A DNA stretch of 64,000 nt, taken from assembly GCA_949840905.1 (NCBI GenBank), contig CATKXW010000001.1, forward strand, positions 75,499-139,498, written 5' to 3'. This DNA comes from an uncultured Eggerthellaceae bacterium (GTDB lineage Bacteria; Actinomycetota; Coriobacteriia; Coriobacteriales; Eggerthellaceae). Positions 21,918-61,920 of this stretch are shown here, in pieces. Within the stretch, counting starts at the first letter, position 1, and each line of letters opens with the position of its first letter. A program made the position numbers and the translations under genes. The notes below the pieces were generated by a model, which was not told the origin of the DNA, made no database searches, and was given only the letters and a program-made list of their open reading frames with translations.

Positions 21918-21941
21918 GGGAGCTCAGAGCACCTTCCGCCG

Positions 21942-23462: not shown

Positions 23463-23606
23463 TGCCTACCTCGTTCTTCATCATCGTTCGCAATGCCATA
23501 CCATCTTACTAGGAAACGCCCCGCCATGGGGCCGCCACCTGCCCGTTAGCCGCCCTGTTCCCGGCGGCCAGCGCCGAAGGAAGACCGAAAGCCTCGAAGC
23601 GCCCGT

Positions 23607-27642: not shown

Positions 27643-27652
27643 GTTCTTCCCC

Positions 27653-38297: not shown

Positions 38298-38647
38298 GGA
38301 AACTCCCTGGTTCGTCATTCGATGTGAGAGATGTCAAAATGTCATCAAATTGTAATATGCCCAGTTCGATCCATCCCTCTATTCCACGGAATCTCTACGC
38401 CCACCTGAATAGGAGGACCTCCTCGTTTTCAGGCAACCATCCAGCCTGCTACGCGACTCGCATGAAGATGAAGGGACCGGACAGCATGGATGGCACGATA
38501 CGTTCGCAGAAGTTGCTCGAGCTCCCCCCGGAATAAAGCAGGGATACCGAGCTGTTTCGCGCGGAAGCCCGAACGTAGCAGAACGCCGCCGAAGGAACCG
38601 CCAGTTCCAGCTGCGAAATGTAGTTTGTGCGAGGTGGTGTGGGCGCT

Positions 38648-43050: not shown

Positions 43051-43051
43051 G

Positions 43052-45059
<2,008 letters not shown>

Positions 45060-45069
45060 GGTCTCCTCC

Positions 45070-45966: not shown

Positions 45967-46100
45967 GGGCCGATCCCCCCTCTGCTCGGGCTCTCTGCCG
46001 CGCTCGCCCGCGCAACGAGGGCCTCGTGAATCCATTGCGACCATGATAGCGCAACTACCGGCCGCTCACCTTCCGGCGAGGGCTGCGGCGGCAGGCTCGA

Positions 46101-47039
46101 TCACCGTCCGATCAGTCGGCGCTTCAAACGTGCGAACACGGACGGCGGCTCGCTCACGGCCGCTGCGGCAGGGGCTACCTCCTCGGTGCGAGAGAGCTGG
46201 GATGCTTCGTTGTTCTGGGCCTGGGCGAGCAGCAGGGCGAGCTCGCGCGGAAAGCGCTCGAACAGCGCAGCGAGCACCCCGTCGTTGCCACCGCGTTCGA
46301 GGTTCTCATGGCACAGAGCGCACGCTTGGGAGTCGGCCACGTAATCCAGCTCGTAAGGGGCGGCGCTCACCACGGGGATGCCAAGGCGCAGCTCATGGAC
46401 GAACAACCATAGGTCGTCGGTGAACAGCGCGCTCGTGCGGATGGCCGCCTCGTCGAAGACCGCCTCGTCGAAGGCACGGGGCGGATAGAGGATGCCGCCC
46501 ACCCCCGTCGCCAGCAGATCGCAGCGCGGCTCGCCCTGATGGAGCTTCTGCTCCAAGAGCCAGCTGTCATAGGGGGCCAGGCGCCCCTGACCCTCTCCGG
46601 TCAGGGCGCGCACCAGATGGGTGCGGCAGGCCACCACCGCCGAAGGGTGCTCCTCATGGGCAGCCAGCAAGCGCTCCACCAGGTCGGAAGGGTAGCGGAT
46701 GTCATCATCCACGGTGATGACCACCGCATCGGGATGCGCCTGCATGGTCCAGAAGTACTTATCGTGGGGACCGAGCGTGCGAGGGCACCAGCGCACCTCC
46801 ACCGCACCCCCCTCGACCGCCCGGCCGAGGGCGCGCAAAGGCTCCTCGCGATCGGGGAAGTCGTCCTCGGCCAACCATAGGCAGATGCGATCGGGCGCCA
46901 CGGTCTGGCGTTGCAGCGACGCCAACACCTCGCCCAACCCGGCAAGGCGCGGAGGGTAGGTGGTCAGCGACAGGACGACCTCAGCCCCCTGAGGCACCAT
47001 CTCCCCGTCCGTCCTCATGATGCGGCGCAGCTCGCTCAA
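46101..47039 (-). CDS. Putative glycosyltransferase (GT-A-like, DDD motif)
   Basis: 312 aa. LSLTTYPPR...ICLWL...ITVDDDIRYP...TDDLWL pattern as in polysaccharide-locus glycosyltransferases. Start is the TTG at 47039 or the ATG at 47018. Confidence 0.55.
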   Translation of the reverse strand: MSELRRIMRTDGEMVPQGAEVVLSLTTYPPRLAGLGEVLASLQRQTVAPDRICLWLAEDDFPDREEPLRALGRAVEGGAVEVRWCPRTLGPHDKYFWTMQAHPDAVVITVDDDIRYPSDLVERLLAAHEEHPSAVVACRTHLVRALTGEGQGRLAPYDSWLLEQKLHQGEPRCDLLATGVGGILYPPRAFDEAVFDEAAIRTSALFTDDLWLFVHELRLGIPVVSAAPYELDYVADSQACALCHENLERGGNDGVLAALFERFPRELALLLAQAQNNEASQLSRTEEVAPAAAAVSEPPSVFARLKRRLIGR

Positions 47040-49102
47040 GCGACCTTGCGCAGGTACTTGGGCAGGTCGAACTCAAGACCGGTGCCCGACATGTTCTGAC
47101 CGAGCCACGAGTAACAGCTCGACATGGTCTCGGCGATGCCGGTAGCCCAGGTGAGCGAGGTGGCGTACTGATGCCAAGGGTCGCCGCCCTGCTCCATGCG
47201 CTGCACGTCCCAACGCATCTTATAAAGGGTGTTCTGCTGACCCGACTCAGGCGAGGTCGAGTTCACGTAATTGTTCGATATCCATTCCGCTGCGCCCACG
47301 ATAGCGCGCTCGGGGCTGCTCCAGCCGCCCTTCTTCGCCATGGCAGCACCGCCGTTGTTCGGGTCGACGTCGTAGGCACCGATGCCGTAGAAGTTGTAGT
47401 AGCCCTCATAGCCGGCCACCTTGCCCTGAGCGAGGGTCGAACAGCCCCACGCGCTCTCGATGGCGGCATGGGCGAGCAAATACACCTCGTTCACATTGTG
47501 CTTCTTGGCTGCGTCGATGAAGTACTGACCGGTCTCGCGCAGGTTGCTGCGCACGCCGTAGCGCTTCTCCTGATAGGTCACCTTCGAGGCGATCAGCTGG
47601 TTGAGCTGATCAGCCGTCACGTTGCCCGAGAACCCGTCGGAGAGGATGGCGTACTGGTAGTACTTCTGGCCCCAATAGGAGCACTTGTCAGGATCGAGGG
47701 TCTGCATCACGTCCTCAGCTTTGCTGCCAGAACGTGCCGCTTGGGTCTCAGCGAAGCGCTCCAGCCACACATCATAGGCGGTGACGCGGATGTTCGAGAA
47801 ATGGAGCGCGTCGAACAGCGCGCCCTGCACGCTGTTGCTGAGCGCTTTGGTATCGCCGAAGATGCGCATGGTCTTGATGCCGCCAGCACGGTTGACCACG
47901 TCAACAGCGCGCTCGGTGTTGTTCTCGTTCACCAGCATCATCACCGACTTGCTGCGTCCCTGAAGGGCGCCGCCGCCGAGAGCGTCCCACGGAGCCAGGC
48001 CGGTAGCGAAGCCGGCGCCCTCCATGGACAGGCCGTTCTTGGTGGCCCACACGGCCGTCTTGGCGCTGGTATCATAGCGATCGGTGCCGTCCATGCGCTC
48101 GACATTGCTCGCGCAGTCGCGCAGCATCTGCTCGGTGCCCGAGCTCACGCGCACGCCGCTGCCCACCACCAGGCCCTGGTCGAAGGAGCCAGCAGCACGC
48201 AGAGCGCCGGTCTGCTCGTCGTTCAGTACCAGGTCGTCGTTGGTGAGGAACAAAGGTGCCTTCTTCACGTAGGCCACCGGCGCGGCGGAAAGAGCGTCAG
48301 GGAACGCCACATCCTGGCCGCTGGCCACCACCACCAGGTCGTTGCCCCACAGACCGTTCTTCTTGCCGTAGTCGTAGATGGCCATCTGCGTCGCATAGCG
48401 ATCCACGCCGCCCAAACGGCCCTCCAGCGCGATGCCCATGGCGCGCAGGTCGTCCACCACCTGGTCGCTCAAGGCGGCCGTAGAGCCGATGACCAGAGCC
48501 TTCTTCACCCGCAGCGTGGTGATGGCGCTCTTGGCACAGTCGCTCAACCGCCACGGCTCGGTGAGGAGGATGGGGCAGTCGTAGGCGCCAGCCAAGCTCG
48601 ACGCGGTCAGTGCGTCGGGGAAGCGCTCGCCGGTGACCAGGATGATGTAGTCGCTGCTCTGCCATCCGGTGGTGGCCTGACGAGCGGAGGTGTCGTAGCG
48701 GTCGCAGCCGTCGAGGGTCACCACGCTCTGCGAGCGCGTGGTGCTCGAGAACAACGAGATACGATCATCGGCACCGGAACCGTCATCGTCGGTCTTCATG
48801 TTCTCGGCGATCTCCTCATCGGTGATGTTGGAGTACAGAGGAGCCTCTTCGCTCTCCTCCACCGGAGCCATCGGCTCATCGGAAGCTTCCTCGGCCGCTT
48901 CTGGCACATCGGGTTCTTTGAGCGATGCGGCCAGCGGAGCCTCTGCGGGGGCTTCTTCATTCTTCTGCATCAGATCGTCGACGAGAAGGCTCGTCCACGG
49001 AAGACCGTTGTTCGCCAACGCCGACAACGGCATCGACAAGACGAGGGCGGCCGACAGCGCCACGCCCACGATAGCAGCAAGCTTCACCTTGCGGTTCTTC
49101 AT
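47036..49102 (-). CDS. Secreted cell-wall hydrolase: three CWB2 (CW_binding_2) repeats plus a GH73 N-acetylglucosaminidase domain
   Basis: 688 aa from the ATG at 49102 (signal peptide MKNRKVKLAAIVGVALSAALVLSMPLSALA). Repeats GCDRYDTS..FPDALTASSLAGAYDCPILLT, GVDRYATQ..FPDALSAAPVAYVKKAPLFLT, GTDRYDTS... C-terminal LLAHAAIESAWG...YNFYGIGAYD is a glucosaminidase core. Confidence 0.85.
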   Translation of the reverse strand: MKNRKVKLAAIVGVALSAALVLSMPLSALANNGLPWTSLLVDDLMQKNEEAPAEAPLAASLKEPDVPEAAEEASDEPMAPVEESEEAPLYSNITDEEIAENMKTDDDGSGADDRISLFSSTTRSQSVVTLDGCDRYDTSARQATTGWQSSDYIILVTGERFPDALTASSLAGAYDCPILLTEPWRLSDCAKSAITTLRVKKALVIGSTAALSDQVVDDLRAMGIALEGRLGGVDRYATQMAIYDYGKKNGLWGNDLVVVASGQDVAFPDALSAAPVAYVKKAPLFLTNDDLVLNDEQTGALRAAGSFDQGLVVGSGVRVSSGTEQMLRDCASNVERMDGTDRYDTSAKTAVWATKNGLSMEGAGFATGLAPWDALGGGALQGRSKSVMMLVNENNTERAVDVVNRAGGIKTMRIFGDTKALSNSVQGALFDALHFSNIRVTAYDVWLERFAETQAARSGSKAEDVMQTLDPDKCSYWGQKYYQYAILSDGFSGNVTADQLNQLIASKVTYQEKRYGVRSNLRETGQYFIDAAKKHNVNEVYLLAHAAIESAWGCSTLAQGKVAGYEGYYNFYGIGAYDVDPNNGGAAMAKKGGWSSPERAIVGAAEWISNNYVNSTSPESGQQNTLYKMRWDVQRMEQGGDPWHQYATSLTWATGIAETMSSCYSWLGQNMSGTGLEFDLPKYLRKVA

Positions 49103-49258
49103 GACCAACACCCTTCTTCTCCGCCGCTCCCGTTCAGGTCCCCTTCCCTGGGGGGGCATTCGGAGGCGGCCTCTCTGCTACGTTTGGTGTTTATAATGAG
49201 TGATGTTAGATTATATGACCGTTCATTTCCCTTGAAAAGACGGAAGAAGAGCGAAAGC

Positions 49259-50581
49259 ATGGACCCCACATCTTCTCCGCGATGCGAGACCGCCGGCCCC
49301 GAAGGGGCCTCTGACGAGCGCTCGCGGCCAGCTCCGCTCTCGCTGAAGAGGAACATCGCCTGGAACACGACCGGCTGCCTCTTCTATCAGGGGTGTCAAT
49401 GGCTCACCACCATCGTGGTGGTATGGCTCAGCCACGGCTATGACAACGCGGGCATCCTCGCGCTCGCCATGGCGGTGGGCAACATCTTCGCCTCCATCGC
49501 CTTATATAAGATGCGCACCTTCCAAGTCTCCGACGTCGCGAACGCCTACAGCCAGGGAAACTACGCAGCGGTGCGCTTCATCACCGTCGGTGCCGCCTTC
49601 GCCCTGTGCATCCCCTATGCCCTCCTCACCACCACTGGGACCGATACGGTCCTGTGCATTCTCGCGTTTCTGCTGTTCAAGTCCGATGAGGCCTTCGCCG
49701 ACCTGCTCTACGGCGTCGATCAGCGCGGGATGCGCATGGACTACATCGGCATCTCGCAGCTGCTGCGCGGCGTGGCCTCGCTCGGAGCTTTCTCGCTCGG
49801 GCTCTTGGTCGGCCACAACCTGCTAGCGGCCATCGGCACCATGTTCGTCTCCTGCCTCGCCATCACCCTGTTCTACGATCTGCCCCATGCCCAGCGCTTC
49901 GCCTCGCTACGCCCGCGCATCTATGGCCGCACGGCGCTCTCGCTTCTGCGCAGCGGGCTTCCCGCGGTGCTCGCGCTGGTAGCTAACATCGCGGTGGTAT
50001 CGGTGAGCCGCCAGTTCCTCGGCGCTCTGTGCGGCGAAGAGCTGCTGGGCATCTACGCGAGCATCTCCACGCCGGCCGTGCTCATGCAGGCGGCGGTGGG
50101 ATACCTCTACACGCCCATGATCGGCCATCTTTCCCAACTGTGGAACAGCCATGACGTCCACGGCCTGATCCGCTTCCTCGGGAAGATGGGAGTGCTGGTC
50201 ATCGGGTCGCTGGCGCTGTGCTCGGCGTTGCTCGTCGCCGTCGCGCCGTGGTTGCTCACCCTCGTGTTCGGCGAATCCATCGCTCCGTGGGCGTGGATAT
50301 TCCCCTCCTCGATGCTGTGCACGGCTCTGATCGCGCTCATATCGCTGGCCTGCGACGTGCTCATCGTGTTCCGTCGCCCCTCTTCGGCGCTGCTCAGCTG
50401 CGCAGCTGCTTTCCTAGTGGCAGTGGTCGCGGCCGTGCCGTTCATCGAGGCGTTCTCCTTGAACGGCATCAACCTGTCCATCTCGCTGGCCTATGGGCTC
50501 GGCATCGTCATCGCCACGATCGCCATCGTGAGCGCCATCCGCCGCCGCTGCATGATGAAGACGGCGTCGCAGAACAGCTAG
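49259..50581 (+). CDS. Wzx-like oligosaccharide flippase (MOP/polysaccharide biosynthesis family)
   Basis: About 440 aa, about 12-14 TM. It is the real 3' third of the 1136-aa track ORF. A TATAAT at 49192-49197 favours the ATG at 49259 over 49196. Confidence 0.75.
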   Translation: MDPTSSPRCETAGPEGASDERSRPAPLSLKRNIAWNTTGCLFYQGCQWLTTIVVVWLSHGYDNAGILALAMAVGNIFASIALYKMRTFQVSDVANAYSQGNYAAVRFITVGAAFALCIPYALLTTTGTDTVLCILAFLLFKSDEAFADLLYGVDQRGMRMDYIGISQLLRGVASLGAFSLGLLVGHNLLAAIGTMFVSCLAITLFYDLPHAQRFASLRPRIYGRTALSLLRSGLPAVLALVANIAVVSVSRQFLGALCGEELLGIYASISTPAVLMQAAVGYLYTPMIGHLSQLWNSHDVHGLIRFLGKMGVLVIGSLALCSALLVAVAPWLLTLVFGESIAPWAWIFPSSMLCTALIALISLACDVLIVFRRPSSALLSCAAAFLVAVVAAVPFIEAFSLNGINLSISLAYGLGIVIATIAIVSAIRRRCMMKTASQNS

Positions 50582-50919
50582 CGGCTTCGCCGCTCGTTCT
50601 CGCTCAGAGCCTCGTCCTGCACCAGCTGGGAGAGCTTCGCCTTCAGCTTCGCTATCTCCAAAGAGGCGCTGAACTCCTTCATCAGCAATATGGCCACGAT
50701 GCACAAGAAGATGAAGTTCGCGGGCGACTCCACGCCCAGCAGGTCAGCGCACCAGAACGCTATCTGCGGGAACACCGCCAGCACCGCCAAGCACAGCACG
50801 AAGAAGAACCAGAAGATGGCATCGGCCGTCTTTATCTGGGACTTACGTATCTTGCGCAGCACGAACACCAGCGTGAGCAGGGCTGCGACTATGAGGAACA
50901 CCCTCAGACTGAGCGCCAT
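50578..50919 (-). CDS. DUF2304-family small membrane protein
   Basis: 113 aa, three TMs and a C-terminal amphipathic helix. It has the usual position immediately after a GT2 gene. Confidence 0.7.
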   Translation of the reverse strand: MALSLRVFLIVAALLTLVFVLRKIRKSQIKTADAIFWFFFVLCLAVLAVFPQIAFWCADLLGVESPANFIFLCIVAILLMKEFSASLEIAKLKAKLSQLVQDEALSENERRSR

Positions 50920-50926
50920 GGGCCGA

Positions 50927-51673
50927 TCACACCTTCTTCCTGAACCACTGCACCAACAGGATGGAAACGCACACCTGCAGCATATAGCTCATCGAGCGGG
51001 TGAACGTGAGGTAGCTCTCCCCTGCGATGCGCTCCTGCATCTCCACCTGCACCTCTTCCACCTTCGCGCCGCTGCGCATGGCCAACACGAGGGAATCGGG
51101 CTCAGGACCTAGGTCCAGCTCAGTAGCGAACGGCTCGATCATCTTGCGGTCGAACAGGCGCATGCCGGAGGTGGGATCGGTGATGGTCTTGCCCGTGGTG
51201 AGCTTGATGAGCCCCGTGATGAGGCTGGAGCCGATCATGCGGGCCGAAACGGGCTTCTTCTTCTCGCAGAACCGCGAGCCGATGACGATGTCAGCGCCGG
51301 TGCGTTCGGCCTGCTCCACCATAGGGAGTATGTAGGCGGCGCCGTGCTGACCGTCGGCATCGAACTGCACCGCGTAGTCGTAGCCGTGGCGCAGGGCGTA
51401 CTTCATGCCGGTCTGGAACGCCCCAGCAAGGCCGAGGTTCACAGGAAGCGAGACCAGGTTGTAGCCGTGCTCCTCGCACAGGCGCGCGGTGGCGTCCCGC
51501 GAGCCGTCGTTCACGATCACATGGTCGACCCCTGGTGCACGGGCCAGCAGGTCCTCCACCGTGGAGACGATGTTCTCTTCTTCGTTGTAGGCCGGGATGA
51601 TGGCCAGGATCCTTCGGTCCATGGTGCTCGTCTTCTCGTTTCGGTCGGTCGATGCCGCTATCGGGTCAGCCAT
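50927..51673 (-). CDS. GT2 glycosyltransferase (polyprenyl-phosphate glycosyltransferase-like, GtrB/CsbB type)
   Basis: 248 aa. ILAIIPAYNEEENI, DGSRD, FDADGQH motifs. Paired with DUF2304. Confidence 0.8.
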   Translation of the reverse strand: MADPIAASTDRNEKTSTMDRRILAIIPAYNEEENIVSTVEDLLARAPGVDHVIVNDGSRDATARLCEEHGYNLVSLPVNLGLAGAFQTGMKYALRHGYDYAVQFDADGQHGAAYILPMVEQAERTGADIVIGSRFCEKKKPVSARMIGSSLITGLIKLTTGKTITDPTSGMRLFDRKMIEPFATELDLGPEPDSLVLAMRSGAKVEEVQVEMQERIAGESYLTFTRSMSYMLQVCVSILLVQWFRKKV

Positions 51674-52457
51674 TGCTCTTGCGCCCCAGTCCGTGAGCGA
51701 GGTTGAGCGCCCAGGCGATGGGCGCGGGCCAGAAGCGCCGCAGCATCTCGCGGTCCTCGGCGGTGCGCGTGTTGTCCTTTATGAGGGCCGAGGTCTCCGA
51801 TCCCTCGTGGATCCTATGGTACATGAGGATGCGCGGGTCGTAGAGGAACTCGCCGCTCAGATGGGATATGCGCTCCCATGCCTCCCAATCGAGGTTGCTC
51901 TTCATGCCGTCTTGGAACACTGGGTACGGCAGCGCGTCCACCGCCATCGTCACCGACGGACAGCAGATGGCCGAGCCCAAGGAGAGCACACGACGGCGCA
52001 CGCGCACATCGGCGCGATTCGCCTTGTCCTCCAAAGGACGCAACAGCTTGCGCTTCACGGCCAGCAGACGGTTGTCGTCCACCGGCTCCCCATCGCGCAG
52101 CTCGCCGTAGTTGGTGAAGAACAGCAGCGGTCGTTCCGCGTCGTTCATGGCCTCCAACATGGCCTCGGCATAGGGGGCGCAGTACACGTCATCTTGGTGC
52201 GCGATGGTCACCAGCGGCGTATCGGCGCAGGACAGCGCATAGTTCCAATCGTGAGCGATGCCTGGGGCCTCGCCGCTCACGAACAGCTCGATGTCGGCCT
52301 GTCGTGCTGCGTCCTCTATCCACCCGTTCGGCGTGGAGGTGCACAAGATGATGTGGGAAGCGACGCTCTGGTCCTTCAACGAGGCGATGCACTCGCGCAG
52401 ATAGGGGCCTTCCCCGTAGGCGCAAAGGGCGAATGTGTGGTCTTGGGCAGTGAACAT
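51666..52457 (-). CDS. GT2-family glycosyltransferase
   Basis: 263 aa from the ATG at 52457. FALCAYGEGPYLRECIASL...IAHQDDVY. The track ORF to 52901 is a spurious extension. Confidence 0.7.
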   Translation of the reverse strand: MFTAQDHTFALCAYGEGPYLRECIASLKDQSVASHIILCTSTPNGWIEDAARQADIELFVSGEAPGIAHDWNYALSCADTPLVTIAHQDDVYCAPYAEAMLEAMNDAERPLLFFTNYGELRDGEPVDDNRLLAVKRKLLRPLEDKANRADVRVRRRVLSLGSAICCPSVTMAVDALPYPVFQDGMKSNLDWEAWERISHLSGEFLYDPRILMYHRIHEGSETSALIKDNTRTAEDREMLRRFWPAPIAWALNLAHGLGRKSNG

Positions 52458-52575
52458 GGGTCCAGTATAATGGACATTTCCTCTCCGTTCGCGAGATACC
52501 GCGAAGAGGACGCGCTTCGATGCCACGCGGAACGGTGCCGTCGAAGTCCTCCCTCGGAAACGAAAAGGTGATCCT

Positions 52576-54714
52576 ATGTGGGCCGGCTTCATCGTCGGAT
52601 GCCTCGTCGGCATCTTGATCCTGTTCATCCCCGGTGCGCTCGTGCTGCGCGCGCTGCGCTTCTCGCTGCCCCAAAGCTGCGCGTTCGCCCCTGCGCTCTC
52701 GGTGGCCATCATCGCCATAGCAGGCGTGGCCATCGACCTGCTCTCGCTGAAAGGGGTCGGGGCGCTGCTCGGCATGACGGCGCTCATCACGGTGGCGCTG
52801 AGCGCGAAGGGGCTGCTCTCCTCCCTGACCGCCTGGCGCGCCCACGCCGCGGAGAAGCCGAGCGCAGCTCCCCTGCTGCCGTCCATCTCCTGGGGGGCCA
52901 TCGCGCTCTACGTGGTGGTGAACGTGGGTGTCATGGGGTATCTGTTCCTCATCTGCCTGAGCTCCCTCGATGCCATCATCCCCATCGGGGACGTCAACTA
53001 CCATGTGAACGTCGTGATGTCCATGATGGACAGCGGCAACTTCTCCACCCTCTCCGTCTCCCCCTACCCTGACTCGCTTCCCGCCGAAGAGGTGCCCTTT
53101 GCCGCGAACGGCTACTATCCGGCCGCCTGGCATGCGGTATGCGCCCTGCTCGGCTCGCTCTGCGGCCTGAGCGCCCCTCTGGCGGAGAACGTCTTGAACT
53201 TCCTGTTCACCTCCGTGGTGTTCCCCCTCGGCGTGCTGGGGCTTTTGACGGTGGCCTTTCCTGAGCGCAAGACGTTCGTCTGGTGGGGGGCGCTCGTGGT
53301 GTGCGCCGGGGTCGCCTTCCCGCTGCGGCCCTTGCTGGTCCATCAGATATATCCGAACATCGCTGGGTTCTCCTGCCTGCCGGCGGTCATCGCCTTGAGC
53401 GCGGCGGCCTTGGGCCCCCTCGACGGGAAAGGGATGCGCTCGCGGCTCCTCGCCGCCTCCTTCGGCGGCTTCGTCGGGTTGGGCCTGCTGCATCCCAACG
53501 TGTTCTTGGCAGGATGCGTCTTCCTGTTCGCCATCGTGCTCTGCATCGGCATCCCGCAGCTCTCAGCTTGCCTCGCCCGTCGCGCCCGCCAACAGCGATG
53601 GCGTTCGCCGAGGCGGTGGCGCATCGCGCTCTCGGTGGCCTGGATCGTGCTGGCCGTGACGGTCTGGCTCGTGCTGTTGGACCTGCCGGCCTTCGCCAGC
53701 ATCACCAACTTCCTGTGGACGTGGACCGTCTCGGTGCCGAAGGCCATCATGTTGGTGCTCTCCTTCGGCCTGTGCCTCGGGCCGCCCCAATACCTTCTCG
53801 CGTTGCTCGGCGTCATCGGCGCCATCTGGTGCTCGCGCCATGAGGGCCATGGATGGCTCGTGCTCGCAGCCGTGCTGTTCGCCATCGTCTTCTGCGGCGG
53901 GGCCGCTGGGTCCCCTGAGGTGAAGAAGGTGTTCGCCGGCTTCTGGTACACCGACCCCGAGCGCACTTCAGCTCTGTTCACCATCGCCATGATCCCGCTC
54001 GTGGCCGCCGGTCTCGGGCTGGCCTACCAAGGGGTGCGAAAGGGCATCGACGTCCTGATCGAAAGAGGCGAGAAGGCCTCCTCCCAGCAGGGCCGCACCG
54101 CGACCGCGGCCAGATCGGCCAAGATCGGGGCCATCGCCGTGGTGACCGCGGTCTTCGTCAGCCTCGACTTCTTCGCAGCTCACATCCCTCTGCCCCTCCC
54201 CGGGTTCGGCGACGGCTCCGGTTTCGCCATCACACGCCAAGCCCTCCGCTATGAGAGCGATCCTGCCAACTCGCCGCTCTACACCGAAGCGGAGCAACGC
54301 TTCGTGGACGAGGCGCTCGCCCTGGTGAGCCAGGAGGGGCACGACGATGCGCTCATCATCAACCAGCCCCACGACGGCAGCCTGTTCGCTTACCCCGTCA
54401 ACGACGCCAACGTGTACTACAAGTCCTACATCCGCTCCGACCAAGAGAGCGAAGAGAGCAAGGCCATCCGCCTCTCCCTCGACGAGATATCCACCGACGA
54501 AGCCGTTCGCGCAGCCGTGCGCAAAGCCGAGGAGAGCGCCGGGGCCGTCTATGTGCTGGTGCTGAACCACGACGAGGGCGAGAACTACGACAGCAACCGC
54601 TGGAAAGAGGAGGACTGGACCGGCTTCGACGACCTCACCGACGCCACCCCCGGCTTCGAGACGGTGCTGGCCGACGGCACCATGCGCCTCTACCGCATCA
54701 CCGCCCTCGACTGA
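52576..54714 (+). CDS. Large polytopic membrane protein with a C-terminal extracytoplasmic domain (GT-C-like / polymer-modifying candidate)
   Basis: 712 aa, at least 12 predicted TMs. An early loop motif DVNYHVN...YYPAAWH, and a soluble acidic C-terminal ~170 aa. SD AAGGTGA before the ATG. Confidence 0.5.
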   Translation: MWAGFIVGCLVGILILFIPGALVLRALRFSLPQSCAFAPALSVAIIAIAGVAIDLLSLKGVGALLGMTALITVALSAKGLLSSLTAWRAHAAEKPSAAPLLPSISWGAIALYVVVNVGVMGYLFLICLSSLDAIIPIGDVNYHVNVVMSMMDSGNFSTLSVSPYPDSLPAEEVPFAANGYYPAAWHAVCALLGSLCGLSAPLAENVLNFLFTSVVFPLGVLGLLTVAFPERKTFVWWGALVVCAGVAFPLRPLLVHQIYPNIAGFSCLPAVIALSAAALGPLDGKGMRSRLLAASFGGFVGLGLLHPNVFLAGCVFLFAIVLCIGIPQLSACLARRARQQRWRSPRRWRIALSVAWIVLAVTVWLVLLDLPAFASITNFLWTWTVSVPKAIMLVLSFGLCLGPPQYLLALLGVIGAIWCSRHEGHGWLVLAAVLFAIVFCGGAAGSPEVKKVFAGFWYTDPERTSALFTIAMIPLVAAGLGLAYQGVRKGIDVLIERGEKASSQQGRTATAARSAKIGAIAVVTAVFVSLDFFAAHIPLPLPGFGDGSGFAITRQALRYESDPANSPLYTEAEQRFVDEALALVSQEGHDDALIINQPHDGSLFAYPVNDANVYYKSYIRSDQESEESKAIRLSLDEISTDEAVRAAVRKAEESAGAVYVLVLNHDEGENYDSNRWKEEDWTGFDDLTDATPGFETVLADGTMRLYRITALD

Positions 54715-54831: not shown

Positions 54832-57800
54832 TCAGCGACCCATCACCTTGTGAGCCAGGCCCTTCACGGTCTCTCGCCGCTTGCTGCCCACGGGCATCAG
54901 CGGGTTCACTATCTTGCGCACCGCGCGCCCCACCGGCAGCGCTGGCGGCTTGGGAGCCGGCGCGACATCAGGCCGCTCGTTGGCGAGCAGCATGGCCAGC
55001 ATCACCTCGTAGAACGGCGTGTTGCGCGCATAGCGCCAGTACACCTCGTTGCGATCGCAGTACCAATCCTTCCACGGCTTCTGGAACCCGGCGTAATGGA
55101 TGATCCACGGATCGGCATAGGATGCGCAGAACCCGTCGTAGACCGCCGCCGGCGCGTGGACGAACACGTTCGCGATACGGTTGCCGCAGTCGTTCATCAC
55201 GTTCCATCGCGGGTCGAGGTAGCGCACGCGCCCCTCGCAACAGGCGTTGAGCACGTCTTGGTCGTTATAGATGTAGTCGGGATCCGCCGCGAAGGTGAGC
55301 CACTCGTCCACCCCATGGGCGTTGCGCATCGCCTCGGTGTTCAGCACCAGCACCCCAGCTTGGAAGTAGTCGTAGGGGTCCTTCATGTGCAGCGTCTCAG
55401 CGTTGTAGGCCAGACGCTTGCCGTCCTTCAAGTTGAGGTTGCCGAGGAAGTCGATGTCGCGCACGGCTCCCACCAGGGCATCCCCCAGGTCGGTATCATA
55501 GAGCGCAGCCACGTCCCCCTCCACGATGAGGTCCGAATCCAGGTAGAGCACCTTATGGTATTCCGGCAGGATATCCTGGATCAGGAAGCGGAAGTACGTC
55601 TCGATGCCGATATGCTCGTTGTTGGTCGACAGGTCGTACTCGGCCACCAGGCTGCCGGCGCCTACGAATCGCAGGCGCGCGTTGGCGCGATCGAGGAACC
55701 GCTTCATCACCTGCTGATCGTAGCCGCTGATGCCGTTCTCCAACACCACGATGTCATAGAAGCGCTCAGGCGAGGCGTTCTCCAGCATGGAGGAGATGGT
55801 GGTGGTCAGCATGGGCACGTAGCCGCCGTCAGCAGCGAACACCACGGGCACCACCGGCAACGGCTGTTCGAGCTGCATGCTGGGCAGCGCCGGGCCGTGG
55901 GTCTTGTCCGGATGCTCGAAGTGCACGCACTGCACCTGCTTGGTCTTCCACTGCGCGCCGGTGCGCATCTGATGGTTATAGTAGATGTTGAACAAGCGCT
56001 CGGAGAGGTGACCAGGGGTGCGCAGCGCCTCTTTGCTATAGGTGCTCATGTCCGTCACTTCGCAGAACCGCTCCAAGATGGGGAACATCCACTCGCAGTA
56101 GGCGAAGAAGATGTCCTTCTTCATCACGTACATGTTGCAGAAGCAGGTGAAGTTGCCGTTAGCGAAGGCTTCGACGTCCTCGACGTAGTCGGGATGCATG
56201 TCCTCCACGATGGCGAGCACCGTCGGCAGGTCGTCCTCTTTCAGAAGGGGCGCTTCGACGTACTGCTCAAGGGGCGTGTTCGCGCGGAACGGGAACTTCC
56301 GCAGGTCCTTCATCTCGGTGGTGATGACGTCGTAGCCCTCCACGGCGCGGGCGATGGTAGCGTCGTCAAGACCGTACTTCTTCTGGGTGGCGGCATCTAT
56401 CACGCCGTCCATGATCTCGCCGTAGTCGTTCTCCTCATAGCGCACATCGCTGAAGTTGAAGTAGCGGCGGTAGTGGCAGAAGCCGTAGTAGTCGGCATCC
56501 ACGTTCTTCCACGCCCAGTACTGGGCCGTCAGCTCGCAGTACTGCGGGTTCAGCTCGCTGATGTTCTCGCCCGCGTCATCGGAGAGCATGTGGTCGAAGC
56601 GCGCAGCGGCGTTAGCCGCTCCCACCTGCACCGGTTGCAAGATGTCGCTCTCGAACAGGTCGACGTCCTTATGGGCCGCCACGAACAGGCGGATGCGCTG
56701 GTCGTCCCAACGCTTGCGGACGGCCTGCTGCACGGTGCGCGCACGCACGTTCTCACGATCGTTGCGCGCCTGCTGCGCCATGGCATAGGTGCGCGGCGAG
56801 AGCACCTTGGAGCGAGCGAGGCTGCGGGCGAGGTCGAACCACTGGTCGAAGGGCTCCTCTCCCTCATAGGCGGCACCCTGAGCCCACAGGGCGTAGGCAT
56901 CGTCGCGCACGAAGCGCACCAGCTCGTAGATGGTCTCGTCCTCGCCGATGATGGGGACCAGCCCCTGGGCCGCCTCCAGCTTGTCCTCGTCAGCCACACG
57001 CTCGTGCCAATCGTTGCAAAGGAGCTGCAGCAGCTTCTCCTTAGCGCCGCGCACCGCGCCGTCCAAGGAAGGATCGTGGCAGCTGGCGGCATATTCCTCG
57101 ATGGCGTCGATGGCCATCTGGAACGCGCGAGCGCTCTTCAGAAACGACTCCACGCTCAGAGCCGCCGAGCCGTTCAGGCCGCGACCGTAGTAATAGTCGA
57201 GAGCGACCACGTCATTGGCGGTGAGCTGCTCGCTCGCCAGGCTGGCGATGACGAAGAACTCGTAGGCGTCCTGGGCACGGCCGAGGCGCTCGGCGTTCAT
57301 GGCCTCATAGGCGCGCTTGAGGAAATCGGTGCGATAGACGCGCTGAGTGACGCGCCAGTCTTGCTCGTAGCCGCCTTCCGCATCGAAGATGACCTTCATG
57401 ATGCGCCGGCCGCGCAGAGGCGCCATGGGGCGGTTGATGTAGGCCTCGAAGGCCGCTCGCTCCCCTTCGTTCACCCCAGCGTCCACCACCCGTATGCCGT
57501 AGTGGAGCATCTCGCAGGGCCGCTGGGCCAAGCGCTCGTCCAGCGCTCCCAACGCCCCTGCGGGCACCTCGTCATCGGAGTCGAGGAACAGCGCGTATTC
57601 CCCGCTCGCACGGGCCACTCCGCTCTTGCGGGCCCGATGGGTGCCCTCGTTGTGCGGCTTGTCCACCACAACGAAACGCCCATCGCGAGCGGCATGGTCT
57701 TGGGCGATGACGGCGCACCGATCGGGCGAGCCGTCGATGACCACCACGGCCTCCCAATCGGTGAAGGACTGAGCGAGCAGGCTGTCCAAGCAGGCCGGGA

Positions 57801-57849
57801 GGTATCGCTCGTTGTCATAGGCGGGGATGATGACGGAGAACCGCTTCAT
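54832..57849 (-). CDS. Three-domain glycosyltransferase: GT2 + DUF4422-like + GT8
   Basis: 1005 aa. GT2 at aa 1-220 (FSVIIPAYDNERYL, DGSPD, DSDDE). Helical linker. DUF4422-like block at aa ~385-645 (LFVAAHKD...NPQYCELTAQYWAWKN...YGFCHYRRYF). GT8 at aa ~665-930 (VVFAADGGYV...YFRFLI...LYLDSDLIV). Basic C-terminal tail. Confidence 0.8.
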   Translation of the reverse strand: MKRFSVIIPAYDNERYLPACLDSLLAQSFTDWEAVVVIDGSPDRCAVIAQDHAARDGRFVVVDKPHNEGTHRARKSGVARASGEYALFLDSDDEVPAGALGALDERLAQRPCEMLHYGIRVVDAGVNEGERAAFEAYINRPMAPLRGRRIMKVIFDAEGGYEQDWRVTQRVYRTDFLKRAYEAMNAERLGRAQDAYEFFVIASLASEQLTANDVVALDYYYGRGLNGSAALSVESFLKSARAFQMAIDAIEEYAASCHDPSLDGAVRGAKEKLLQLLCNDWHERVADEDKLEAAQGLVPIIGEDETIYELVRFVRDDAYALWAQGAAYEGEEPFDQWFDLARSLARSKVLSPRTYAMAQQARNDRENVRARTVQQAVRKRWDDQRIRLFVAAHKDVDLFESDILQPVQVGAANAAARFDHMLSDDAGENISELNPQYCELTAQYWAWKNVDADYYGFCHYRRYFNFSDVRYEENDYGEIMDGVIDAATQKKYGLDDATIARAVEGYDVITTEMKDLRKFPFRANTPLEQYVEAPLLKEDDLPTVLAIVEDMHPDYVEDVEAFANGNFTCFCNMYVMKKDIFFAYCEWMFPILERFCEVTDMSTYSKEALRTPGHLSERLFNIYYNHQMRTGAQWKTKQVQCVHFEHPDKTHGPALPSMQLEQPLPVVPVVFAADGGYVPMLTTTISSMLENASPERFYDIVVLENGISGYDQQVMKRFLDRANARLRFVGAGSLVAEYDLSTNNEHIGIETYFRFLIQDILPEYHKVLYLDSDLIVEGDVAALYDTDLGDALVGAVRDIDFLGNLNLKDGKRLAYNAETLHMKDPYDYFQAGVLVLNTEAMRNAHGVDEWLTFAADPDYIYNDQDVLNACCEGRVRYLDPRWNVMNDCGNRIANVFVHAPAAVYDGFCASYADPWIIHYAGFQKPWKDWYCDRNEVYWRYARNTPFYEVMLAMLLANERPDVAPAPKPPALPVGRAVRKIVNPLMPVGSKRRETVKGLAHKVMGR

Positions 57850-57874
57850 GGGCGCTCACTTTCTCGTTTTCGAC

Positions 57875-57891
57875 ATGCTATATAATAGCAT
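57875..57891. promoter_or_regulatory. Perfect 17-bp palindrome containing back-to-back extended -10 elements (candidate operator/divergent promoter)
   Basis: ATGCTAT-ATA-ATAGCAT. The plus strand reads TGCTATATAAT and the minus strand reads TGCTATTATAT. It sits between the 1005-aa GT gene (-) and wzm (+). Confidence 0.55.
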
Positions 57892-57952: not shown

Positions 57953-58741
57953 GTGTCCGCACAGAGCGTACAGAACCAGACCGGCCTGAGGCGCGACTGG
58001 TTCACCATCACCTCTCTGGTCTCCAAGGATTTCAAGCTCAAATACCGTCGAAGCGTGCTGGGCGTGCTGTGGTCGGTGCTGAACCCGCTGCTCATGATGT
58101 GCGTGCTCACGGCCGTGTTCAGCACGTTCTTCCGCTTCGAGCTGGAGCACTATCCGTTCTACCTCATCTTGGGAACCACGCTGTTCTCGCTGATGTCGGA
58201 CTCCACCAACACCGCCATGACCTCCATCATCGACTCGGCGCCTCTCATCAAGAAGATACGCATCGACAAGATCATCTTCCCGCTCGAAAAGGTGCTGTTC
58301 CAGATGGTGAACTTCGCCATCTCGCTCATCGCCGTGGTCATCGTCATGGTGTTCCTGCAGATACCGCCCACCTTCAACCTGGCGTTCCTACCGCTGCTGC
58401 TCGTCTACGTGGCACTGTTCAGCGCAGGGCTCGGGCTCATCCTGTCCACCCTCGCGGTGTTCTTCCGCGACGTGGTGCACATCTGGAGCGTGGTCACCAC
58501 CGCATGGATGTACGCCACCCCGCTGTTCTACCCGGTCAGCATCTTGCCCGACTGGATGCTCGGGTTCGAGGCGTTCAACCCGATGTATCACTATGTCACC
58601 TACTTCCGCGACATCGCGCTGTGGGGGAACACCCCCGGCGCCATCGAGAACCTCGTGTGCTTCGCCATGGCCGCGGTCACGTTCCTGGTGGGCTTCTTCG
58701 TGTTCCGCAGGGCGCAGAAGAAGTTCATCCTCTACGTGTGA
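57953..58741 (+). CDS. ABC-2 type polysaccharide/teichoic-acid export permease (Wzm/TagG-like)
   Basis: 262 aa. KDFKLKYRRSVLGVLWSVLNP N-terminal signature, six TMs. GTG start with AAGGAG 11 nt upstream. Confidence 0.88.
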   Translation: MSAQSVQNQTGLRRDWFTITSLVSKDFKLKYRRSVLGVLWSVLNPLLMMCVLTAVFSTFFRFELEHYPFYLILGTTLFSLMSDSTNTAMTSIIDSAPLIKKIRIDKIIFPLEKVLFQMVNFAISLIAVVIVMVFLQIPPTFNLAFLPLLLVYVALFSAGLGLILSTLAVFFRDVVHIWSVVTTAWMYATPLFYPVSILPDWMLGFEAFNPMYHYVTYFRDIALWGNTPGAIENLVCFAMAAVTFLVGFFVFRRAQKKFILYV

Positions 58742-58759: not shown

Positions 58760-60607
58760 ATGCCCAAAGAGGTCAACACATCTTCGCTGATGACGAGCGC
58801 CGCGGCTCCGGCCGCCGACGAGGGACGGACGGTGATAGCCGTCGAGGATGTCTCCATGGTGTTCAACATAGCCAACCAGCAGCTGAACAACTTGAAGGAA
58901 TACGCCATCGCGCTCGCGCGCCGCGAGCTTATGTTCAAGGAGTTCGTCGCCCTCGACCATGTCTCCCTCACCGTGAAGAAGGGGGATGTGTTCGGCATCC
59001 TGGGCACTAACGGCTCGGGCAAGTCCACCCTGCTGAAGATCATCGCCGGAGTGCTGGAGCCCACCTGCGGCACCGTCGAGATAGACGGGTCCATCGCCCC
59101 TCTGATAGAGCTGGGAGCTGGGTTCGACTTCGAGCTCACCGCTCGCGAGAACATCTACCTCAACGGCGCTCTGCTGGGCTATCCGCGGCGCTTCATCGAC
59201 GAGCATTTCGACGAGATAGTCGACTTCGCCGAGATAGGCGAGTTCCTCGACATGCCCATCAAGAACTATTCTTCGGGCATGGTGGCGCGCATCGCCTTCG
59301 CCATCGCCACGGTGATCGTGCCCGACATCCTCATCGTGGACGAGGTGCTGTCGGTGGGCGATTTCATGTTCCAGCAGAAGTGCGAGCAGAAGATACAGAG
59401 CCTCATCAACGAGCATGGGGTGACCGTGCTCATCGTCTCTCACAACAACGACCAGATAGAACGCCTCTGCAACAAGGCCATCTGGATAGAGAAGGGCCAT
59501 GGCCGCATCGTGGGCAGCGCAGAGGAGGTCTGCGGCATCTACCGCGCGCTCGGCGGCCACACCGGCAGCGCTCAGGCCGAAGCACAGCTCTTAGAGCTGA
59601 TCGAGAGTCCCGTGGCTCCCGCCGAAGACGCCCTCGAGGTGATCGCGGGCGATACCCGCTACAGCACCAACGTGCAGCTGGCGCGGCGCACGAGCTTGGC
59701 CGCCGGCGGCACGGCCACCATCGCGTTCGGAGAAGACCCCGACGCCCACCTGCTGGCCGTGGCCTTGGCCGGAGCGCTGCAAGGCGCGGCGCTCATCACG
59801 AAGGCCGATGAGCTGCCCGACGCCACAGCGCTGGTGCTGGCTCAGATGGCACCGTCCCGGGTCGTGCTGATGGATCGCGACGGCCAGCTCGCAGCGGATA
59901 TGGTCGATGCGGTGCGCGCAGTGGTCGGCCCCGCCTGCGAGGTCACCCGCCTCGCAGCGGACGGGACGGTCGCGCTCGCCCGCGGAGCGCTCGCCTATGC
60001 GGATGCCCACCACGCCACGTTCAGCCCGGTGGCCTTCGTGGTGGGCGGGAACGGCGCGTTCGCCTCCGCCACCATCGCCCCCTACCTCGCCCGCCATGGC
60101 TCTCAGCTGCTGTTCGCCACCGAGGGCGAGCCGCTGGATGGCACCGTCATGGAAGAGATGCGGAAGCGCGGGGCGCAAGAGGTCGTCTTGTTGGGCTCTG
60201 TGCCCGTGACCGAGAAGGGCCGTCACGCGGCCCAGCAGGCCGGGCTGACCCTCACCGCCCTCGCAGGCGACAGCGACGCAGAAGCCCATCGAACCGCCTT
60301 GCGGTGGCTCACGGAACGCCATCGAGCCACCGGCGAGCTGGTGAGCCGCCTGGTGCTGACCACCCTGGCCGGTCCGACCGACAGCTATTCGGCCGCTGCG
60401 CTAGCCGCCCAAGACCACGCCGTCATCATGATGGCCGACCACAACGACCTCGACAGCATGGCGGCGGTCGTCTCGTTCATCGAGGAGGAGCGCGGGGCGG
60501 TGGATTCCGTGGCCGTCATCGGCAACGACGCATGCTTCAACGGCACCGATCGCAAGCTCGTCCGAAAAGCCCTCGCCCGCGCGAAGGCCGCAGCGCAGAA
60601 GGGCTAA
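58760..60607 (+). CDS. Polysaccharide/teichoic-acid export ATP-binding protein (Wzt/TagH-like) with a ~335-aa C-terminal CWB2-like extension
   Basis: 615 aa. NBD with GTNGSGKST, YSSGM, ILIVDE. The C-terminal part has three CWB2-like segments, the first starting AGDTRYSTNVQLA. Confidence 0.85.
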   Translation: MPKEVNTSSLMTSAAAPAADEGRTVIAVEDVSMVFNIANQQLNNLKEYAIALARRELMFKEFVALDHVSLTVKKGDVFGILGTNGSGKSTLLKIIAGVLEPTCGTVEIDGSIAPLIELGAGFDFELTARENIYLNGALLGYPRRFIDEHFDEIVDFAEIGEFLDMPIKNYSSGMVARIAFAIATVIVPDILIVDEVLSVGDFMFQQKCEQKIQSLINEHGVTVLIVSHNNDQIERLCNKAIWIEKGHGRIVGSAEEVCGIYRALGGHTGSAQAEAQLLELIESPVAPAEDALEVIAGDTRYSTNVQLARRTSLAAGGTATIAFGEDPDAHLLAVALAGALQGAALITKADELPDATALVLAQMAPSRVVLMDRDGQLAADMVDAVRAVVGPACEVTRLAADGTVALARGALAYADAHHATFSPVAFVVGGNGAFASATIAPYLARHGSQLLFATEGEPLDGTVMEEMRKRGAQEVVLLGSVPVTEKGRHAAQQAGLTLTALAGDSDAEAHRTALRWLTERHRATGELVSRLVLTTLAGPTDSYSAAALAAQDHAVIMMADHNDLDSMAAVVSFIEEERGAVDSVAVIGNDACFNGTDRKLVRKALARAKAAAQKG

Positions 60608-61920
60608 TCGCGTCCGAACAGATCGCGCGTGTACACCTTAGCGCGCACGTCATCGAGCTCCGGATGATAGCGGTTCGCCAAGATGAGCGTGCTGCGACGC
60701 TTCAGCTCATCCAGATCGGCCACCACCTCTACCCCGTCGAACTCCGCACCGGCGAAGGCCGGTTCGTAGATGACCATGTCCACGCCCTTGTTCCGTAGCC
60801 GTTCCATCACGCCGATGATGGAGGATTGGCGGAAGTTGTCAGAGCCAGCCTTCATGGTGAGCCGATAGATGCCCACCACCGGGTGCACGCCGGTGCCGAA
60901 CCCGCCCCATTCTCGCAGAAGACCGTACACTTGCTCGGCGATGAGGTCTTTGCGCGTGTCGTTGGTGCGCACGATGGCGCCGATGAGCTCCTGGGGCACA
61001 TCCGCGTAGTTCGCCAACAGCTGCTTGCTGTCCTTGGGGAGGCAGTAGCCGCCGTAGCCGAACGAGGGGTTGTTGTAGTGGCCGCCGATGCGCGGATCGA
61101 GACACACGCCCTCGATGATCTGGGCCGTGTTCAGGCCGCGCAAGGCCGCATAGGTGTCCAGTTCGTTGAAGTAGCTCACGCGCAGGGCCAGATAGGTGTT
61201 GGCGAACAGCTTGATGGCCTCGGCCTCGGTGCTGCCGCAGACCAGCTGGGGCACAGCATCCATGGGCTCGGCTGCGCCTTCGGCCAGGAGCCGCGCGAAG
61301 AACGCGCCGAACTCGCAGTTGCGCCTATCGACAAGATCGACGCCCACCACGATGCGAGAGGGATGCAGGTTGTCGAACAGCGCATGGCCCTCGCGCAGGA
61401 ACTCAGGGCTGAACACGATGCGCCCATCGTTCGCCCGCTGACGCAGTTCGGCGGTATAGCCTACGGGAACGGTGGATTTGATGACGATCCAGCAGCGCTG
61501 GTTCACAGCGCGCACCGTGGCGATGGCCGTCTCCACCGTAGAGGTATCGAAGCGGTCGAGGTCGCTGTCATAGTCGGTAGGGGTGGCGATGACCACGATG
61601 TCGGCGCAACCATAGGCCGCTGCCGGATCGAAGGTAGCCCGTAGAGCCAGCGGATGCTCGCCGGTGGCCGCCGCCATGAAGGCCGCCGTTATCTCGGGAT
61701 CGGCGATGGGGCTGATCCAGTCGTTCACCATGGCGACCTTCTCGGGCACCACGTCCACCAAGGCGACATCGCTATGCTGGGCCAGCAGCGTCGCCATCGA
61801 CAGCCCCACATAGCCCGCGCCCGCCACCGCGATGCGCGCTCGGCCATCGGGGCGCACGAACGGCTCTTCTTCGACCGCTTGCTGTTGTTGTTGCTGCTGC
61901 TTCTTCCGCCCGAACACCAT
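60604..61920 (-). CDS. ugd: UDP-glucose 6-dehydrogenase family (nucleotide-sugar dehydrogenase)
   Basis: 438 aa. GAGYVGLS Rossmann motif and catalytic GYGGYCLPKD. The ATG at 61920 has SD GGAAGGGA. The N-terminal 30 aa includes seven consecutive Gln. Confidence 0.88.
   Translation of the reverse strand: MVFGRKKQQQQQQQAVEEEPFVRPDGRARIAVAGAGYVGLSMATLLAQHSDVALVDVVPEKVAMVNDWISPIADPEITAAFMAAATGEHPLALRATFDPAAAYGCADIVVIATPTDYDSDLDRFDTSTVETAIATVRAVNQRCWIVIKSTVPVGYTAELRQRANDGRIVFSPEFLREGHALFDNLHPSRIVVGVDLVDRRNCEFGAFFARLLAEGAAEPMDAVPQLVCGSTEAEAIKLFANTYLALRVSYFNELDTYAALRGLNTAQIIEGVCLDPRIGGHYNNPSFGYGGYCLPKDSKQLLANYADVPQELIGAIVRTNDTRKDLIAEQVYGLLREWGGFGTGVHPVVGIYRLTMKAGSDNFRQSSIIGVMERLRNKGVDMVIYEPAFAGAEFDGVEVVADLDELKRRSTLILANRYHPELDDVRAKVYTRDLFGRD

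Follow-up and report, generated by a model that had tools for sequence, protein, structure and literature searches.

A 64,000-nucleotide stretch of DNA from an uncultured Eggerthellaceae bacterium (the whole of which is referred to here as the window) contains a wzt/tagH-like gene whose 615-residue product joins the nucleotide-binding domain (NBD) of a predicted ATP-binding cassette (ABC) glycan exporter to a C-terminal module of ∼325 residues. The module is a genuine CWB2 triplet with all three of its repeats, and shares a common origin, as one unit, with the triplets that anchor secreted proteins to the cell wall. The protein is predicted to be a component of an ABC glycan exporter with a C-terminal module in the position of a recognition domain, built from a different and unexpected fold. 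A protein identical to it occurs on 16 public contigs. An earlier reading of the window, made from the sequence only, had drawn attention to positions 59600–60607, which cover residues ∼281–615 alone, the C-terminal part of the open reading frame (ORF). The parts of the gene are listed below, together with a secreted hydrolase of the same window that also carries a CWB2 triplet.

58760..60607, plus strand: wzt/tagH-like gene encoding NBD, linker and CWB2 triplet; single intact ORF of 615 residues with Pfam matches to ABC_tran and CW_binding_2
58841..59545, plus strand: NBD of the Wzt/TarH/TagH type, residues ∼28–262; matches in NCBIfam, PDB sequences and Foldseek
59546..59632, plus strand: linker followed by a helix, residues ∼263–291; invariant columns in the 88-sequence alignment A2
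59633..59926, plus strand: CWB2 repeat 1, residues ∼292–389; 24.5 bits against PF04122 when taken singly; one (β-α)×4 unit in the model
59939..60238, plus strand: CWB2 repeat 2, degenerate in sequence, residues ∼394–493; no Pfam match when taken singly
60248..60601, plus strand: CWB2 repeat 3 and C-terminal helix, residues ∼497–614; 17.4 bits against PF04122 when taken singly; structural match
47036..49159, minus strand: secreted peptidoglycan hydrolase with three CWB2 repeats and a GH73 domain; PF04122 at 2e-41 in three stretches, Glucosaminidase at 7e-13

A Complete CWB2 Triplet at the C Terminus

The C-terminal module matches PF04122 at 34–36 bits (gathering cut-off 24.9 bits), whether the whole protein or the C-terminal part alone is compared with Pfam, and when the C-terminal part was searched against PDB sequences with phmmer the sole matches were Cwp8 (5j6q, 6e-8) and Cwp6 (5j72, 4.5e-6) of Clostridioides difficile. 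An AlphaFold2 (AF2) model of residues 270–615, calculated from 28 family sequences, has a mean predicted local distance difference test score (pLDDT) of 95 and a predicted template modeling score (pTM) of 0.92, and is composed of three (β-α)×4 units. Comparison of this model with the PDB in Foldseek produced 11 hits at E ≤ 1e-3, which are CWB2 triplets without exception. The two proteins that the sequence-only reading had singled out for structural comparison, Cwp6 and Cwp8, superpose with TM-scores of 0.72 (1.3e-13, 327 columns) and 0.68, respectively, and the high-molecular-weight subunit of SlpA with 0.64–0.69, the alignments spanning 327–340 columns overall; the next fold after the CWB2 triplets lies below a TM-score of 0.23. 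The full-length AF2 model (pLDDT 90.2, pTM 0.85) also retrieves Cwp6, over 330 columns, amid hundreds of NBD hits. Together these matches bear out the three CW_binding_2-like segments described from the sequence. The description of segments 2 and 3 as degenerate was likewise right, as the single-repeat PF04122 scores listed above indicate; repeat 2 is nevertheless recovered through the second CWB2 of Cwp8 (phmmer), through repeat 2 of the GH73 hydrolase (hhalign) and in Foldseek.

The GH73 hydrolase itself has the three unambiguous CWB2 repeats ascribed to it, on the minus strand; its likely start is at 49102 and its N terminus is hydrophobic and resembles a signal peptide. Aligned with this triplet by hhalign, the profile of the Wzt module family gives a probability of 99.6% and an E-value of 1.7e-23; the 290 aligned columns are 18% identical, and the register runs repeat 1 to repeat 1, 2 to 2 and 3 to 3, from which it follows that the whole triplet was inherited as one unit. 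The fusion is thus an old one, which did not arise by recent copying of the neighboring GH73 gene. A phmmer search of all window ORFs with the GH73 triplet found only itself; the window therefore holds no other close CWB2 gene, and the likeness of the GH73 triplet to the Wzt module is not detectable pairwise. Across the family, 26 of 28 C-terminal regions match PF04122, the best at 4e-20. Each repeat carries a PILL-like hydrophobic motif after its third helix (APVLL, PVFF and A(I/F)LL in the family; AALIT, SQLLF and AVIMM in the query), a motif that in CWB2 serves the packing of the trimer (PMC4973711, PMC5842191) and has a structural role, not one in ligand binding (PMC5842191). In the conservation profile, the best-conserved motif of the C-terminal part lies in the segment of repeat 3 and the C-terminal helix, with the family consensus LLEDPQDLDSVAHA and the query sequence MMADHNDLDSMAAV.

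The Nucleotide-binding Domain and the Linker

The sequence-only reading had assigned the N-terminal part to the Wzt/TagH type, and the motifs that it quoted are all present: GTNGSGKST at residues 82–90, YSSGM at 170–174, ILIVDE at 190–195 and SHN at 227–229. The ABC_tran match (PF00005) is at 3e-20 in Pfam, with Walker A, ABC signature, Walker B and H-loop all in place. The best NCBIfam models for the NBD are those of the teichoic-acid TagH and the galactan Wzt (1e-55 to 1e-60), with scores far below the equivalog level: the TagH models NF010065 and NF010066 are matched at 205 bits (cut-off 538) and 189 bits (cut-off 320), and the galactan Wzt model NF050108 at 194 bits (cut-off 400). Among PDB sequences the top matches are TarH (6jbh), Aquifex Wzt (6amx) and Mycobacterium abscessus Wzt (9qfx), at 1e-51 to 1e-56; with Bacillus subtilis TagH included the range is 1e-49 to 1e-56, and the next match, KpsT, is at 1e-30. 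The best structural matches of the full-length model in Foldseek are TagH, Wzt and TarH (order as in the sequence search). By these comparisons the protein is assigned to the broad Wzt/TagH kind, and not as an equivalog of any named transporter.

Between NBD and module the linker follows the pattern Y-x3-GG-x2-G-x4-E (residues 261–274; 59540..59581), in which Tyr261, Gly265, Gly266, Gly269 and Glu274 are unchanged across the 88 sequences of alignment A2, a conservation greater than that of the CWB2 module. At this junction the full-length model has helices at residues 254–264 and 271–282. Tyr261, in the hinge helix of the NBD, was considered as the mark of a glycan pocket of the kind found with carbohydrate-binding domains (CBDs), by comparison with Tyr233 of the Aquifex protein, and was set aside as not discriminating because the M. 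abscessus Wzt, which has no CBD, has the same tyrosine. At the other end of the protein, the N-terminal decapeptide MPExVNTxxL (residues 1–10; 58760..58789) is conserved in the fusion family and has low pLDDT.

The Module Is Predicted to Lie in the Cytoplasm

Signal and hydrophobicity analysis of the 615-residue protein found neither a signal peptide nor a credible transmembrane segment, in agreement with the sequence-only reading. There are only two hydrophobic windows, both within folded domains: the buried region of the Walker-B strand and an Ala-rich helix/strand at residues ∼327–347 in repeat 1, where pLDDT is ∼97. Because signal peptide and transmembrane segment are both lacking, and given the direct fusion of module to NBD, the CWB2 triplet is predicted to lie in the cytoplasm, joined to the NBD by the invariant linker. 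The profile of B. subtilis TagH (PRK13545, 549 positions) matches the NBD at positions 7–236 only, and the tails of the two proteins are therefore unrelated.

Neither is the module a known Wzt CBD. No Wzt CBD appears among the Foldseek matches of the C-terminal module, and full-length Aquifex Wzt aligns over ∼260 columns of the NBD only. With an α/β model and no jelly-roll match, the known Wzt CBD fold was rejected for the module, and as this fold test fails the protein falls outside the Wzt CBD family. The identification of CWB2 thus stands on all the grounds on which the sequence-only reading could have fallen: PF04122 and structural similarity are significant, no transmembrane helix is found, and no characterized carbohydrate-binding module of Wzt is matched.

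The Fusion in Other Eggerthellaceae

An exhaustive HMMER search with the C-terminal query found 1348 proteins at E ≤ 1e-3, mostly ordinary secreted CWB2 proteins, and among them a set of ∼600-residue representatives that match at ∼275–610. With the full-length query, the best 120 homologues listed are 594–728 residues long and have their architecture in common, which answers the question, raised from the sequence, of whether other Wzt/TagH homologues carry the same C-terminal fusion; 119 of these 120 cover 94–100% of the query at 45–70% identity, one 728-residue match covers 67%, and most carry precomputed PF00005 and PF04122 labels. The named sources of the homologues are all Eggerthellaceae (Adlercreutzia, Enterorhabdus, Slackia, Senegalimassilia, Ellagibacter and Gordonibacter). 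Judged from these sequences, the fusion forms a large family and is not a one-off. When only the C-terminal part served as query, a word-indexed search for homologues found nothing, probably on account of the Ala-rich composition of this part, and a genome scan with peptides of the query's own C terminus also found nothing. Alignment A3 was too divergent for the design of patterns, and a tighter subset, A4, served instead.

Database labels of the homologues read only "ABC transporter ATP-binding protein" or "ATP-binding cassette domain-containing protein". In the full-text literature searched (subscription-only papers being outside its reach) no paper was found on CWB2 fused to Wzt or TagH, nor on any intracellular CWB2, and a 2018 review places CWB2 on surface proteins only (PMC5817068). 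This agrees with the sequence-only reading, which was aware of no described exporter with this fusion, yet the fusion is common in public sequences, where it is automatically labeled PF00005 and PF04122. With the sequences and these labels already public, the databases hold nothing new in this architecture; what appears to be unreported is a description of the fusion as a feature of biology.

The Module Evolves Fast under Purifying Selection

The window was compared with seven related loci (eight loci in all). The synteny of wzm and wzt is constant over the seven related loci, whereas glycosyltransferase (GT) content is highly varied and includes GT2-DUF4422-GT8 proteins, GT2-GT4 fusions, GT2-GT2, GlfT2-like proteins, LicD with choline-activation genes, Wzy_C and YfhO/DUF6541. 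Identities across loci are 70–90% for the NBD, 66–77% for Wzm and 52% for the shared polymerase, and 21–54% for the CWB2 module, whose length is constant. Within clusters of 90% identity the module has 0.041 changes per site, against 0.011 in the NBD, and it evolves ∼3–4 times faster than the NBD.

The ratio of nonsynonymous to synonymous substitution rates (dN/dS), estimated by the Nei-Gojobori method, is 0.06–0.36 for the module and 0.01–0.12 for the NBD in unsaturated Ellagibacter pairs; only pairs with dS of 0.1–0.8 were used, distant pairs (dN and dS both ∼0.9) being saturated and discarded. As dN/dS is below 1, the module is selectively maintained, under purifying selection, with a constraint that is weaker or more variable than that on the NBD. 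The C-terminal region is kept in all cluster members listed with 560 residues or more.

A Proposed Role in Polymer Capture for Export

In some Wzt proteins a cytoplasmic C-terminal domain recognizes the finished glycan; it is essential for export and serotype-specific, and its pocket is formed against the NBD (PMC9445017). CWB2 triplets, for their part, have been shown by experiment to bind the wall polymer PSII in C. difficile (PMC4973711). Because a polymer-binding fold here sits exactly where the glycan-recognition domains of Wzt sit, the triplet may capture the finished lipid-linked wall polymer for export, as Wzt CBDs do, a proposal by analogy that is the best of the readings considered and that we regard as evenly balanced between right and wrong. 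The gene is taken to encode the ATPase of an exporter of the Wzm/Wzt kind (ABC type V), the predicted cargo being an undecaprenyl-linked cell-wall glycopolymer of an Eggerthellaceae bacterium. The triplet would bind the completed or nascent polymer, or the polymer terminus, at the cytoplasmic face, which would raise the local concentration of polymer at the channel entrance and license export, and ATP-driven closure of the NBDs would break this contact, so that the glycan is freed to enter the Wzm channel. The fast divergence of the module would mirror the glycan diversity of these variable loci.

Consistent with capture, the module is C-terminal to the NBD, diverges far faster than the NBD or Wzm, in a manner resembling the serotype-specific CBDs of Wzt (PMC9445017), and is under purifying selection; wzm is directly upstream, and rml genes, multiple GTs and wall hydrolases are nearby. 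The sequence-only reading had likewise proposed that the module selects polymer in the manner of the CBD of the E. coli O9a Wzt, and position, fast divergence and purifying selection fit that proposal, but a chain-terminating enzyme was not seen in the locus.

This last finding is one of several that weigh against capture. Characterized CBD-dependent systems possess a chain-terminating enzyme, and the annotated neighbors showed no domain of a methyltransferase, a kinase or a Kdo-transferase; among them, two stretches have no Pfam match, namely the protein encoded by 49259..50581 and the N-terminal region of the GT2 (51666..52901). In the eight loci, few as these are, the similarity of C-terminal modules has no obvious relation to the type of polymerase: the query and the homologue P0153 share a GT2-DUF4422-GT8 polymerase and have C-terminal modules that are just 32% identical, and the C-terminal subtype ("NHNDLDSM" or "EDPQDLDSVAHA") showed no clear correlation with polymerase type across the eight loci, a sample too small for a conclusion. 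Faster evolution at dN/dS below 1 is equally to be expected of a loosely constrained scaffold. Finally, the PSII site on CWB2 is known from docking only (PMC5842191).

The main rival reading, unlikely on balance, is that the triplet acts as a platform for the docking of proteins or for regulation, which might serve the recruitment of membrane-associated GTs, the coupling of synthesis to export or modulation of the ATPase, with no binding of glycan. A conserved fold with a very variable surface sequence would suit such a platform, as would partner GTs that differ among loci and a locus in which no cap enzyme is visible, and the invariant linker between NBD and module, together with the high pTM (0.85), points to a coupling that is mechanically fixed. 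CWB2 has, however, no known precedent as a protein-interaction module, and the characterized triplets all bind wall polymer (PMC4973711). Loci with very different GT sets would moreover demand a conserved partner, and the sole invariant neighbor is Wzm.

It is improbable that the module senses a small cytoplasmic ligand, such as a nucleotide sugar, a lipid-carrier pyrophosphate-linkage unit or a second messenger, and so gates export to precursor supply. The idea draws on the toprim/Rossmann-like α/β fold of the CWB2 repeat, which is often nucleotide- or phosphate-binding (PMC5842191), and on the UDP-sugar dehydrogenase that is convergently adjacent in three loci. Against it, no nucleotide motif of acidic or glycine-rich type is conserved among the near-invariant C-terminal positions, the Foldseek comparison gave no protein that binds nucleotides above a TM-score of 0.23, and a conserved small ligand predicts a conserved pocket, unlike the 21–54% identity observed.

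Two further readings were rejected. That the module is a functionless relic of a gene fusion is very improbable; it is the fastest-evolving part of the locus and its repeat 2 escapes Pfam, but a dN/dS of 0.06–0.36 is well under 1, length and fold are kept in the listed best homologues, and the C-terminal region is kept in the listed members of at least 560 residues. Display of the module outside the cell, where it would bind mature wall in a topology like that of B. subtilis TagH, is hardly conceivable: TagH has a long C-terminal extension and is the best NCBIfam match of the NBD, but here no transmembrane segment separates NBD and module, the hydrophobic window at ∼327–347 is buried in a globular fold (pLDDT ∼97), and the tail, beyond the 7–236 of 549 positions at which the TagH profile aligns, is not homologous.

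Should the triplet capture polymer, a single wall glycopolymer of Eggerthellaceae might be read twice by modules of the CWB2 type, inside the cell on Wzt, licensing export, and outside on secreted anchors such as the GH73 hydrolase 10 kb away. This extension, which the sequence-only reading had put forward as one fold used twice, is quite doubtful. That CWB2 triplets on Wzt and on a GH73 hydrolase are co-located in the window is confirmed, and co-location is the one observation that points to a common polymer; the two triplets are 18% identical, and the wall hydrolases next to wzt in sister loci carry RicinB (L017) or choline-binding repeats (L018), not CWB2. If it held, exporter specificity and the anchoring of surface proteins would co-evolve with glycan structure, and the module would be a second, independently recruited substrate-recognition fold in ABC-dependent glycan export, as well as the first intracellular role of CWB2.

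Comparison with Known Systems

The CBD-bearing Wzt proteins (those of E. coli O9a, of Raoultella terrigena/Klebsiella pneumoniae O12 and of Aquifex aeolicus WzmWzt; 7k2t, 8dku) resemble the present protein in their NBD family (1e-55), in the Wzm partner, in an ABC-transporter-dependent glycan pathway and in a cytoplasmic module that is C-terminal to the NBD and diverges much faster. Their CBDs, however, are dimeric β-sandwich (jelly-roll) domains of ∼150 residues that recognize a terminal cap (PMC9445017), whereas the module here is an α/β CWB2 pseudo-trimer of ∼325 residues with no structural similarity to them in Foldseek. Further differences are a locus that showed no cap enzyme among its annotated genes, a host that belongs to the Gram-positive actinobacteria, and a cargo presumed to be wall polymer in place of O antigen.

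With the known CWB2 triplets (C. difficile Cwp6, 5j72, Cwp8, 5j6q, and SlpA, 7acy; B. subtilis LytB and LytC) the module shares PF04122, the PILL-like motifs and a three-repeat trefoil (TM-scores of 0.64–0.72 over 327–340 columns against Cwp6, Cwp8 and SlpA), although it is just 13–18% identical to them. Those proteins are secreted and bind mature wall polymer outside the cell; the module lacks a signal peptide and forms one polypeptide with a cytoplasmic ATPase. By structure it belongs to the CWB2 family, but it departs from the extracellular location that defines that family.

The closest NBDs, in sequence and in structure, belong to TarGH and TagGH (Staphylococcus aureus TarH, 6jbh and 9cfl; B. 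subtilis TagH, 7dd0) and to the mycobacterial galactan Wzm-Wzt (9qfx), which are likewise wall-polymer exporters of Gram-positive bacteria or actinobacteria with a Wzm/TagG-type permease. Unlike the present protein, TarH and the mycobacterial Wzt have no C-terminal module, and B. subtilis TagH has an unrelated tail, no transmembrane helix following the NBD here.

To our knowledge, substrate selection by glycan ABC exporters is understood for Gram-negative O-antigen systems only, and through one fold, the jelly-roll CBD. A cytoplasmic CWB2 triplet would give a second solution to the choice of cargo, in Gram-positive wall-polymer exporters, and the cytoplasm is an unexpected place for a module regarded as strictly extracellular. 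The module could also serve as a soluble, easily expressed probe for Eggerthellaceae wall glycopolymers and for the ligand site of CWB2. Eggerthellaceae are prevalent, drug-metabolizing gut bacteria whose envelope chemistry is barely studied. Genetic tools exist for Eggerthella lenta (PMC9734109), so that the hypothesis is directly testable.

The Surrounding Locus

On its gene content the region around wzt is predicted to be a chromosomal, ABC-transporter-dependent, rhamnose-containing wall-glycopolymer locus, with the following neighbors.

57953..58741, plus strand: wzm/tagG-like ABC-2 permease, 262 residues; PF01061 at 9e-21, at least five transmembrane-like segments
54832..57849, minus strand: GT2-DUF4422-GT8 glycosyltransferase, 1005 residues, likely polymerase; Pfam
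50578..54714, mixed strands: accessory glycosylation genes, namely DUF2304 (minus), two GT2 (minus) and a polytopic DUF6541 membrane protein (plus); Pfam and gene calls
49259..50581, plus strand: membrane protein, 440 residues, ∼10 transmembrane-like segments, no Pfam match; between the GH73 hydrolase and DUF2304
43052..46044, minus strand: rmlB, rmlD and rmlA (dTDP-rhamnose synthesis); Pfam
42472..43080: probable rmlC; motif only
60604..61920, minus strand: UDP-sugar 6-dehydrogenase, convergent with wzt, the stop codons overlapping by 4 nucleotides; Pfam
36255..38318, minus strand: GH25 muramidase with five RicinB-lectin repeats; same architecture directly beside wzm-wzt in L017 (5682..7700)
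16122..29419, minus strand: dcw cluster of ftsQ, murB, murC, murG, murD, murF, murE and ftsI, 25–30 kb upstream of the glycopolymer locus

The wzm stop codon lies 18 nucleotides before wzt, and wzm is directly upstream of the fusion gene in every related locus examined. The 1005-residue glycosyltransferase has a homologue of 52% identity beside wzm-wzt in L018. Its pairing of DUF4422 and GT8 is reminiscent of that of the WbbM-type galactan polymerases of Klebsiella, and by this analogy hints at a galactan-like backbone. A 1011-residue ORF antisense to the glycosyltransferase gene (54850..57885, plus strand) is a shadow ORF of high-GC DNA and no gene.

The DUF2304 small membrane protein (50578..50919, minus strand), a GT2 (50927..51622, minus strand) and the DUF6541 protein (52576..54714, plus strand, ∼15 transmembrane-like segments) recur jointly near wzt, also in L018 and L021. 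They look like a three-component extracytoplasmic glycosylation system, composed of a polyprenyl-phosphate-sugar synthase, a small membrane protein and a GT-C-like transferase (compare PMC11127046). The neighboring 440-residue membrane protein (49259..50581) could be flippase-, polymerase- or ligase-like.

A convergent UDP-sugar 6-dehydrogenase follows wzt also in L019 and L020, which suggests that the polymers of this subgroup (the window, L019 and L020) contain uronic acid. At least three types of wall-binding module are found on the autolysins of these genomes, namely CWB2, RicinB and choline-binding repeats. Some sister loci hold LicD, choline kinase, cytidylyltransferase and BCCT choline transporter genes, or genes for proteins with choline-binding repeats (L017, 7845..15127; L018, 13103..14878; L019, 600..1508); the polymers of those loci are therefore probably decorated with phosphocholine, unlike that of the window locus.

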